This document shows, one piece after another, positions 35,287-37,411 of a DNA stretch of 41,033 bases. The position numbers and the translations under genes were made by a program. A model generated the notes under the pieces. The model had not been told where the DNA came from. It was given only the letters and a program-made list of their open reading frames with translations, and ran no database searches. The stretch lies in the IMG/VR virus record IMGVR_UViG_2541047701_000006, one strand, 5' to 3'. This stretch comes from a virus (Duplodnaviria; Heunggongvirae; Uroviricota; Caudoviricetes). Position 1 is the first letter of the stretch. Every line of letters starts with the position of its first letter.

Positions 35287-35697
35287 ATGCATCGTATAGA
35301 CACGAAAACCGCGCAGAAGGATAAGTTCGGCGCGGGTAAGAACGGTTTTACCCGTGGTAACCCCCAGACCGGCACGCCTGCCACCGATCTGGATGATGAC
35401 TACTTTGACATGTTGCAGGAAGAGCTTTGCAGCGTGGTGGAGGCATCCGGTGCCAGCCTGGAGAAGGGGCGGCATGACCAGCTGCTTACAGCGCTTCGTG
35501 CGCTGCTGTTAAGCCGCAAGAATCCGTTTGGTGATATCAAATCGGATGGCACGGTGAAAACGGCTCTCGAAAACCTTGGTTTAGGAGAAGCTTCTCAAAG
35601 GAATGTCGGTCCAGGATTCTGGCCGATCCCTGATATGCCAACTTTCGCATCTGACAGGGGGTGCATTAGGCTGTCATTGGAATACATCGGTCAGTAA
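35287..35697 (+). CDS. Tail fibre protein: constant N-terminal region plus short variable segment, ended by in-frame TAA
   Basis: [21 protein letters not shown]... N-terminus of the Mu S/e14-type fibre; crossover site inside coding sequence at 35569-35590; TAA at 35695-35697. Confidence 0.6.
35569..35590. other. Left inversion crossover site (pix/gix/hix-like) inside the fibre gene
   Basis: GAAAACCTTGGTTTAGGAGAAG; its reverse complement matches the right site and the AAACCAAGGTTT core of Hin/Gin/Pin sites. Confidence 0.6.
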
Positions 35698-37384
35698 GTT
35701 TCTGCTTCTGGTAACCCTGTGCTGGCGAACAGGGTACCTTTCCTGATATCATCCCATGCCCAGGCGGTGTTCTCTCTCAGCGTTGATGACGGTGGAGTTG
35801 AAGCTGATCCTTGGGATCCAGCCACCCAGCATGAAGCTGCAAATTTTTCACATATCACTAGGACTGTGGGGCGAGTGGCAACCCACGCTATCTCCCTTCA
35901 AGATGGCTTCACCGATAATCCGACAGGACGTTAGAGATGTAAAATTACATTTTACGTTCCGGGAAAAAGTGTTAATTCTCTGTGTGTCATAACGTCAAAT
36001 ATTGCGATTCCCTTGATGGTCCCGGCTAAGGAATCGAAATTGTTGTTAATGAAGATGCGCAAGCTACGGTGCAGGGAGAAATACGAAAATTCTGAGATGT
36101 CACCGACGCAACTGATGATACGATCGAGACTCCACCATCTACTAATGCGGAAGTAAGTGTGCCAGCCGGATTCGCAGAGCATCAATCGGGCGATAACATT
36201 CACGAATGAATGAACAGTTATAAAGGGACTGGTAGGAGGTAGAAAGATCGCCAGCAAGATGAGACTCTTTCGTCAAACAATTTTTGCCTAGCTTTTACAG
36301 ACGATCTGGAAGTTGTCGTCAAATACGGTGCGCTAGCTCTTGCACGGTCAACGCCATAGGAAATATAGGCCAGTGGACGATGGGTGCCGTATACGTATCT
36401 GTAACACGCACCGGCTGAAGATGAGCCAGAAGTACGTCAACAGTCGTTGTTTCATGCAGCGTTGGCTTCCGCCCGTCCCATAAAGTCGAAAGTACCAGCC
36501 TAATGGAAGCCGTCGCAGGAACAAACAGTCCGGCTTAATGTACTGCTGGAGTATCTTCACCGGCTTCCTGCAGTAGATAAGTGTCCGGCACCGATCTTCA
36601 TCTGTCCTGAATAGCCTATGGCGTTGGCCATGAAATCGCGAGAGAACCGGAATTATTGGCCCCGACCTAAGCGTCCGGATAAGCTACGCACAAATCAGAT
36701 TGCTACACATTCTCATTGTTAAGGTCCCCTACCTCGGTTTTTCCATGCCCTTGCAATATGGTTACGCATCCGTTGACGTTATTGCTAGAATGATTACTAG
36801 CGGGACAGGCGGGGGCACTTTCTTCCTTATTAGTTGATGCTGCAATATCACCCGTTGACGCAAATCTTTCAGCGTCATCATTGAAACATCCTTTTGCGCC
36901 TTGCATCGTAACTTCCGCGTCTACAGTATAGACAGTTTCGATTATTTCACCCTCACCATCAAGGGATATGCAATATGTGACTGTCTGCTACAAACAAAAA
37001 TCAGAATATTACCCAGCGCGTAACTGGTGAATCTGAATTTCGACCGTCCTATCGGATTTACACTGAATCTATATTGCTATTAGATTTCGCGGCCCGCCAC
37101 TCGCCACGTATTATCAGCAAACTGATAAAAGTTTGTAGATAACACCTAGCTTAAAGATTTGCACGCACCTTCTTCAACGGCCCCGGACACCAAGATACGT
37201 GTAAAAACAGCGCGAGTAGCGAGTGATATAGGCAAGTGTAACCCTATAACGAGCACAGTGTATCCTGAGGAAGAAAATATCTGAACGATAAATTCACATA
37301 GTAGCCTACACGACCCGGAATCGGTAGCAGATGCTGGCATTGCCGCGATCTGACAAACTCCTGTAACGCCATTCCTTTTAGCCG
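35591..37384. other. Pin-invertible DNA segment (about 1.8 kb)
   Basis: Bounded by inverted crossover sites with the invertase gene just outside; ends encode homologous alternative fibre C-termini; core 35935-37145 has no intact ORF. Confidence 0.5.
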
Positions 37385-37398
37385 CTTCTCCTAAACCA
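37146..37398 (-). other. Silent alternative fibre C-terminal cassette (expressed only after inversion)
   Basis: Minus-strand frame from the right crossover site (NVGLGEAAKRNGVTGVCQ...) aligns with the plus-strand variable region; no own start or promoter. Confidence 0.5.
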
Positions 37399-37411
37399 AC
37401 GTTTATGAAAA
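37385..37411. other. Right inversion crossover site (pix/gix/hix-like)
   Basis: CTTCTCCTAAACCAACGTTTATGAAAA, about 55 bp upstream of the invertase start. Confidence 0.6.

Follow-up and report, generated by a model that had tools for sequence, protein, structure and literature searches.

Organization of the late-gene region

The window analysed here, namely the whole 41-kb stretch of DNA (41,033 nt), is an Escherichia coli prophage of approximately 40 kb that adjoins dusA and pspG. Its late genes run from a Mu-like baseplate module (gp44-48/YmfQ) through a short fibre gene, which starts at position 35287, to approximately 1.8 kb without usable open reading frames (ORFs). This stretch is followed by pin (37466–38020), a DinI-like gene, a tyrosine integrase gene, and dusA. 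The Mu Gp48/YmfQ baseplate gene (34699–35283) directly precedes the fibre gene. The constant N-terminal part of the fibre (Sc; 35287–35577, plus strand) comprises 97 codons from the ATG to the crossover dinucleotide described below and lies in an ORF spanning 35287–35697. The fibre genes of related dusA prophages match this gene with 97–98% identity as far as position 35590. Throughout 35698–37408, the stop-free frames are shorter than 130 codons, and this is the longest such stretch in the window.

An exact look-up identified the truncated "fibre" of 136 amino acids, including its nonsense tail, as GenBank EQO02841.1 from E. coli HVH 28 (4-0907367). Comparison of the window with scaffold KE699099.1 (GCA_000456425.1) gave 0 mismatches over 11,747 bases, which indicates that the deposited text is reproduced verbatim. 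Two other stretches with few ORFs (14735–15860 and 16880–17852) were considered as extra anomalies and rejected, because they are 100% identical in other genomes and are thus natural. E. coli K-15KW01 is 100% identical to the window over 14600–17900 but lacks pin and half the cassette. The right flanks of CX21 are 99.9% identical, and its cassette is of another type. None of the complete E. coli genomes combines a match of the K-15KW01 type with a right flank of the CX21 type. A search of the initial 3 kb of the window did not locate the other attachment site of the prophage.

Crossover sites

A 19-nt pattern, TTCTCCTAAACCAASGTTT, was run over the 41-kb window and over 100 dinucleotide-preserving shuffles, with up to two mismatches allowed. 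Exactly two matches were found in the window, at 35571–35589 on the minus strand and at 37386–37404 on the plus strand, whereas none of the 100 shuffles gave any. Both matches belong to pix-type crossover sites of 26 bp. The left site (35564–35589) reads CTCTCGAAAACC TT GGTTTAGGAGAA, with the core TT at 35576–35577, and the right site (37386–37411) reads TTCTCCTAAACC AA CGTTTATGAAAA, with the core AA at 37398–37399. The sites are inverted relative to each other, have imperfect dyad half-sites, and share a common 2-bp core. The core dinucleotides TT and AA match after inversion of one of the sites, which is a requirement for productive inversion, and the inner half-sites of the two sites form perfect inverted repeats. 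The left site is one base off the K-12 e14 site CTCTCGAAAACCTTGGTTTGGGAGAA, and the right site is likewise one base off the e14 site TTCTCCCAAACCAACGTTTATGAAAA. In the inner half-site of the right site, there is a T variant that is shared with a cassette of P2-like prophages (L002). Both sites also align with Mu gix and P7 cix, and the published e14 repeats are contained in both, except for one base within each and the base beside the inner end (PMC12529663).

The original prediction, which was made from the sequence before this analysis, had placed imperfect inverted repeats at 35569–35590 and 37385–37411 and had assigned them a core of the hix/gix/pix kind. The repeats are real, and the coordinates were only a few bases off those of the 26-bp sites. 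The core assignment agrees with the alignments to the e14 pix sites (one base off each), gix, and cix. The left site had been located within the fibre coding sequence at the constant/variable junction, and it does lie there in the ORF 35287–35697 (...ALENLGLGE). It had also been proposed that inversion preserves the fibre frame, and the inverted reading indeed stays open into the variable part. The peptide quoted for the inverted end, NVGLGEAAKRNG..., is partly an artefact; the natural sequence is GLGEAAKRDVGTG....

Pin invertase and the enhancer-homologous stretch

The pin gene (37466–38020, plus strand) is intact and encodes a serine DNA invertase of 184 amino acids, with Pfam matches to Resolvase (1.5e-51) and HTH_7 (4.4e-13). 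Pin is 100% identical to PinE of CX21, 96% to PinE of K-12, 82% to Cin of P7, and 77% to Gin of Mu. The active-site serine of the YVRVSTNDQ segment is invariant in the alignment of Pin with PinE, Cin, and Gin. The protein thus has the resolvase domain, the active-site serine, and the C-terminal helix-turn-helix of a small serine recombinase. The two domains and the 96% identity to K-12 PinE support the earlier assignment of a Pin-type invertase beside the switch. The exact Pin protein occurs on 413 contigs.

In the P7 record, a putative recombinational enhancer is annotated at nucleotides 19–86 of cin. By homology to P7 cin, nucleotides 19–86 of pin (37484–37551, plus strand) constitute a putative enhancer-homologous stretch, which matches CX21 pinE at 68 of 68 positions, K-12 pinE at 66 of 68, and P7 cin and Mu gin at 52 of 68 each. 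When pin was scanned for the simple motif G-N13-C (AT-rich centre), a single conserved candidate emerged at nucleotides 22–36, and no clean partner lay 48 bp away. By analogy with the related systems, an enhancer within the start of pin may aid the inversion.

The invertible segment as deposited

The invertible segment spans 1,820 bp between the cores (35578–37397), of which approximately 35591–37380 is deposited as a per-base mixture of orientations (see below). The fibre C-terminus in the written orientation (Sv; 35578–36033, plus strand), whose frame was mapped from L002, is unreadable as deposited. It is followed by U, the tail-fibre assembly chaperone for Sv (36033–36626, plus strand), which has eight in-frame stops as deposited. 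On the minus strand are U′, the assembly chaperone for Sv′ (36598–37038; five in-frame stops as deposited), and Sv′ (37041–37397), an alternative, gp53-like fibre C-terminus that would be joined to Sc upon inversion. Over the four natural gene frames, the deposited interior contains 23 in-frame stops, and, whichever way it is read, it encodes neither a functional fibre tip nor a functional chaperone.

The interior gave no megablast match in 5,426 complete E. coli genomes, and the flanks matched in more than 4,000 E. coli records. The flanks are 98–99.9% identical to relatives right up to the crossover sites. A sensitive search revealed that the interior aligns end to end, without gaps, to natural Sv-U-U′-Sv′ cassettes, with 61–62% identity over 1,763 nt. 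A value of 61% would be expected if half of the bases came from the cassette and half from unrelated sequence; in an invertible segment, the obvious source of the latter is the reverse complement of the segment itself, placed at the same position. The mismatch rates at the three codon positions are almost equal (0.386/0.386/0.404; p = 0.78), in clear contrast to those of natural controls of similar divergence (pin compared with gin or cin; approximately 0.2/0.1/0.55). The ratio of transitions to transversions among the mismatches is 0.53, the substitution matrix is flat, the mismatch density is even along the segment, and the lengths of the match runs follow a geometric distribution. The period-3 coding signals of the interior and the natural cassette were also compared, which was uninformative because the signal of the natural cassette is itself weak.

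Two orientations in one sequence

Bases 35590–37385 (n = 1,796) were compared with the natural cassette L002, read both forward (F) and as the mirrored complement at 72975 − p (I), where p is the position and the mirror register was set by the two core dinucleotides. F alone matched at 671 of the 1,796 bases, I alone at 656, both at 431, and neither at 38 (2.1%). Either F or I therefore accounts for 97.9% of the interior bases, and 656 of the 694 non-forward bases are exactly the mirrored reverse-complement base. The match to I is 0.605 at the axis 72975 − p and falls to 0.24–0.27 when the axis is shifted by one to four bases in either direction. Self-complementarity about the crossover axis amounts to 60% in the interior and to 25% in the natural cassette, and an axis scan of the whole window detected only one axis with such a signal. 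Shuffling gave an accounted fraction of 0.439 (44–48%), against the observed 0.979. Cassettes of the same prophage type (L013–L015 and L017) account for 97.8–98.0% of the interior, and the positions left over are largely common to these cassettes, a pattern expected of strain-specific variants.

The choice between F and I is 50:50 (671:656; binomial p = 0.70). Choices at successive informative bases are independent of each other (runs test, z = −0.68), and each is also independent of the choice made at the mirror base. They show no base preference and are even along the segment. Judged from these base-by-base matches, the deposited interior is a consensus in which the two orientations are combined base by base, and it would not correspond to any real DNA molecule in the cell. 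It is therefore unreadable because of the blending of orientations and not because of decay. The original prediction had called the assembly-gene region anomalous without explaining it; the anomaly is real, and it is this blend.

Deconvolution and fibre products

For deconvolution, we used the base at each position together with the complement of its mirror base, and the remaining gaps were filled from a relative. Among the 1,820 forward bases, 1,468 were seen directly, 325 were imputed from the relative, and 27 were variants. These 27 residual variants (21 transitions and 6 transversions) introduce no stops; such a pattern is typical of natural divergence, in contrast to that of the bulk "noise" in the deposited interior.

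All four products have open frames after deconvolution: the fibre with Sv (248 amino acids), U (197), U′ (146), and, in the inverted orientation, the fibre with Sv′ (215). Along its entire length, the 215-residue fibre matches a natural protein (P0134) with 100% identity; in loci L013–L018, P0134 is encoded beside pin and the same chaperone and baseplate genes. The protein collection contains exactly this 248-residue fibre, including one variant derived from the window, within a 531-member cluster. An exact look-up of the reconstructed U and U′ in the protein collection gave no verbatim match, as expected because of the imputed bases. Their natural counterparts carry the Pfam domain Caudo_TAP. 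With 325 of the 1,820 bases imputed, the deconvolved segment thus encodes two alternative fibre C-termini with their own chaperones in opposite orientations, whereas the sequence as deposited, with its 23 in-frame stops, does not. Among the 120 top-ranking homologues of the artefactual, truncated fibre, none was another chimera, and this sample thus showed no recurrence of the artefact.

Inversion in related prophages

In both CX21 and strain 104, the same prophage occupies this dusA locus. Between the two strains, the sequences on either side of the segment are collinear, with identities of 97.7% and 99.96%; the interior matches at 93% in the reverse orientation, with ends exactly on the two sites. 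The cassette of the P2-like prophages is also present in both orientations, as illustrated by L002 (E. coli SW070912) and L003 (EC26). The segment thus occurs in both orientations between strains (CX21 and 104) and, as the blend suggests, within a single record. Inversion of e14 at the same repeats has been shown experimentally and measured in cultures (PMC12529663, PMC4272514). The proposal that inversion would swap the fibre C-terminus is well supported by the two pix-type sites, the frame-preserving fusion, and the relatives in opposite orientations.

Origin of the blended interior

We consider it highly probable that the locus is a switch of the Pin/e14 type whose interior was blended during assembly from co-existing orientations. 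The switch itself is of a known kind (the Gin/Cin/Hin family), with nothing biologically new. By analogy with Mu Gin, P1 Cin, and e14 Pin, Pin would cleave at the 2-bp cores and rotate the strands, helped by Fis at the enhancer, so that strands are exchanged at the central dinucleotides of the two 26-bp sites. The 1,820-bp inversion would join the 97-codon head either to Sv (with U; 248-residue fibre) or to Sv′ (with U′; 215-residue fibre), and each orientation is predicted to express one fibre tip together with the chaperone that belongs to it. Particles of the prophage, should it be viable, may alternate in receptor specificity, and a phase-variable host range is expected by the same analogy.

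At the assembly step, the assembler would have met two paths of equal length between common flanks and collapsed them into one, with each base picked as if by the toss of a fair coin. A per-base blend fits two such paths and thereby suggests a culture with both orientations at approximately 1:1. The culture that was sequenced probably contained both orientations, with the ratio of approximately 1:1 read from the consensus alone. The blend would largely, if indirectly, answer the question of whether both orientations occur in the population, and it implies a switch that was, most likely, intact and undergoing inversion in the strain that was sequenced. The HVH 28 strain series was presumably assembled at the Broad Institute with ALLPATHS-LG. 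This assembler encodes mixed sites of a culture as local ambiguities (PMC3483556). We infer that a software step of the assembly lies behind the blend. A simple majority vote over shared reads would be expected to leave correlated runs of choices, which are not seen, and this counts against the preferred explanation.

The two orientations might instead have come from two fixed copies of the cassette, for example from a second Pin-type or P2-like prophage, that lie in opposite orientations within similar flanks and were merged. The same 1,822-bp cassette type does occur both in P2-like prophages and in this prophage type, and E. coli genomes have a median of two places matching the queries, with up to 9–12. 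However, the mirror axis falls, to the base, on the two crossover sites of this very locus, whose unique flanks are common to the two paths; a copy within other flanks gives no path from this fibre head into an inverted cassette. The F:I ratio is also close to 1:1 and even over the whole segment, and inversion is documented in relatives. A merge of two copies is therefore improbable.

A still less probable explanation is that the interior is dead cargo, a natural cassette after uniform random substitution at approximately 39% of its bases (in-silico corruption or extreme neutral decay), which would leave the sites and pin as an empty shell, with nothing of use for inversion to exchange. The lack of any megablast match in the 5,426 E. 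coli genomes, the ungapped identity of 61–62%, the equal codon-position rates, the transition/transversion ratio of 0.53, the flat matrix, and the 23 stops are all compatible with this idea. In contrast, uniform substitution in 300 simulations gave an accounted fraction of 0.711 (maximum, 0.742), far below the observed 0.979. The non-forward bases are not random, since 656 of 694 are the mirrored reverse-complement base. Moreover, the self-complementarity about the axis is 60% against 25% in the natural cassette, and the flanks are 98–99.9% identical up to the sites. Random or decayed cargo is therefore refuted; in addition, the truncated fibre is a real GenBank protein, and the F/I comparison accounts for 97.9% of the interior.

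The least credible reading takes the deposited sequence as real, so that a non-coding spacer with 60% self-complementarity would separate intact pix sites in the cell. The presence of the sequence in a public record is the only point in favour of this reading. The sequence lacks indels, both deconvolved fibres occur verbatim elsewhere, nothing similar is present in 5,426 complete E. coli genomes, and we know of no process that would choose at random, at every base, between a sequence and the reverse complement mirrored onto it.

Implications of the blend

Under the preferred explanation, in which co-existing orientations were blended during assembly, this locus is another copy of a textbook switch, with related loci in thousands of E. 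coli genomes. The 1.8 kb of apparent "junk" and the hypothetical proteins called within it would be artefacts rather than pseudogenes or the remains of a decayed switch. The artefact nevertheless keeps information, as it implies similar levels of the two orientations and allows both fibre variants to be recovered. Read correctly, the anomaly argues for an active rather than a broken switch. It also serves as a caution for scans based on sequence only, in which a flat spectrum and a lack of ORFs can represent a blend of two real sequences and not noise.

Whether a per-base consensus of two orientations is a systematic product of one assembly pipeline, as opposed to a one-off event, is a tentative suggestion that we regard as somewhat unlikely. 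If it were true, a scan for approximately 60% self-complementary stretches between short inverted repeats would expose actively inverting segments in thousands of public draft genomes without recourse to reads, and it would flag bogus "hypothetical proteins" such as EQO02841.1.

Comparison with known invertible segments

One of the closest known systems is the P segment of e14 with PinE in K-12. Pin is 96% identical, each crossover site differs by one base, and the gene order (ymfQ, fibre head, Sv, tfa, tfa′, Sv′, and pin) is alike. The site-to-site lengths are also similar (1,827 bp in e14 and 1,822 bp here). However, e14 is a decayed element at icd, whereas the present prophage is apparently complete, lies by dusA, and has its own tyrosine integrase. 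In addition, the interior here is of another cassette type and has no ungapped similarity to that of e14.

Another close system is the invertible fibre cassette of P2-like prophages (for example, L002 and L003). Their cassette is 1,822 bp long, is approximately 98% identical to the one described here once the latter has been deconvolved, and carries the same inner half-site variant. In those prophages, the cassette is joined to a long fibre of the P2 H type (529 amino acids) and is accompanied by another invertase with approximately 72% DNA identity, whereas here it is joined to a 97-residue head in a Mu-like baseplate module.

The G segment of Mu has the same design, in which Sc is joined to Sv-U or Sv′-U′ and the invertase gene adjoins the segment. 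Gin is 77% identical to Pin, and the AAACC-NN-GGTTT core is common to the sites. The G segment is longer (3 kb), and its sites differ in the core dinucleotide and the outer half-sites (TTCCTGTAAACCGAGGTTTTGGATAA). The C segment of P1 and P7 is similar in its invertase (Cin is 82% identical to Pin) and in its cix site TTCTCTTAAACCAAGGTTTAGGATTG, which closely resembles those of the present prophage. In P7, the annotated enhancer lies within the first 86 nucleotides of cin, and a homologous stretch is present in pin. Unlike the segment described here, the C segment is 4 kb long, and cin is on the other side relative to the fibre gene.

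Gene calls in the switch region

Two genes in the public record were called on the blended interior of the switch, a per-base consensus of both segment orientations that arose in assembly. One is the 136-aa "hypothetical protein" EQO02841.1 (window 35287-35697), which runs from the fibre head into the artefactual sequence and forms a cluster of size one in the protein collection. The other is a 67-aa ORF on the minus strand at 36703-36906. Neither is a real protein; both arose from the consensus artefact.

Among database fibres homologous to the fibre head, many are recorded as "partial", with lengths of 136-163 aa (e.g. 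P0032, P0047, P0049, and P0062). Such entries would fit short-read assemblies that commonly break just past the left crossover site if both orientations are present. The source name for most members of the 248-aa tail-fibre cluster is "integrase", which looks like a propagated misannotation.

Other unusual stretches of the prophage

A 318-bp patch in the head-tail gene block (24432-24749) had no megablast-level match in two relatives that are otherwise 97-98% identical. Because the ORF across this patch is uninterrupted, the patch was probably generated by natural mosaicism. Apart from the blended interior, the long stretches without large ORFs (14735-15860 and 16880-17852) lie in the lysis and small-gene region and are natural, both being found with 100% identity in several complete genomes.

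A deleted switch and a variable spot in relatives

The prophage of E. coli K-15KW01 is a close relative, with 100% identity across window positions 14600-17900. Compared with window positions 35588-38020, pin and half of the cassette are missing from it, and its gene order is a 226-aa fibre, a partial chaperone, and then DinI. Its switch is a deletion form that is locked. The interval between pin and the DinI-like gene in the window (38021-38123) is devoid of the extra genes that relatives carry there, which encode either a LEM-3-like GIY-YIG nuclease or a DUF4145 protein. The interval looks like a site of variable cargo adjoining the invertase.

Cassettes shared between tail modules

P2-like prophages (L002 and L003) share one 1,822-bp cassette, including its inner half-site variant, with prophages of the window's own type, which has a Mu-like baseplate (L013-L017). 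In the former, the cassette is joined to a long P2 H-type fibre, whereas in the latter, it is joined to the 97-residue fibre head. Because one cassette serves both fibre types, whole cassettes seem to be exchanged among unrelated tail modules.
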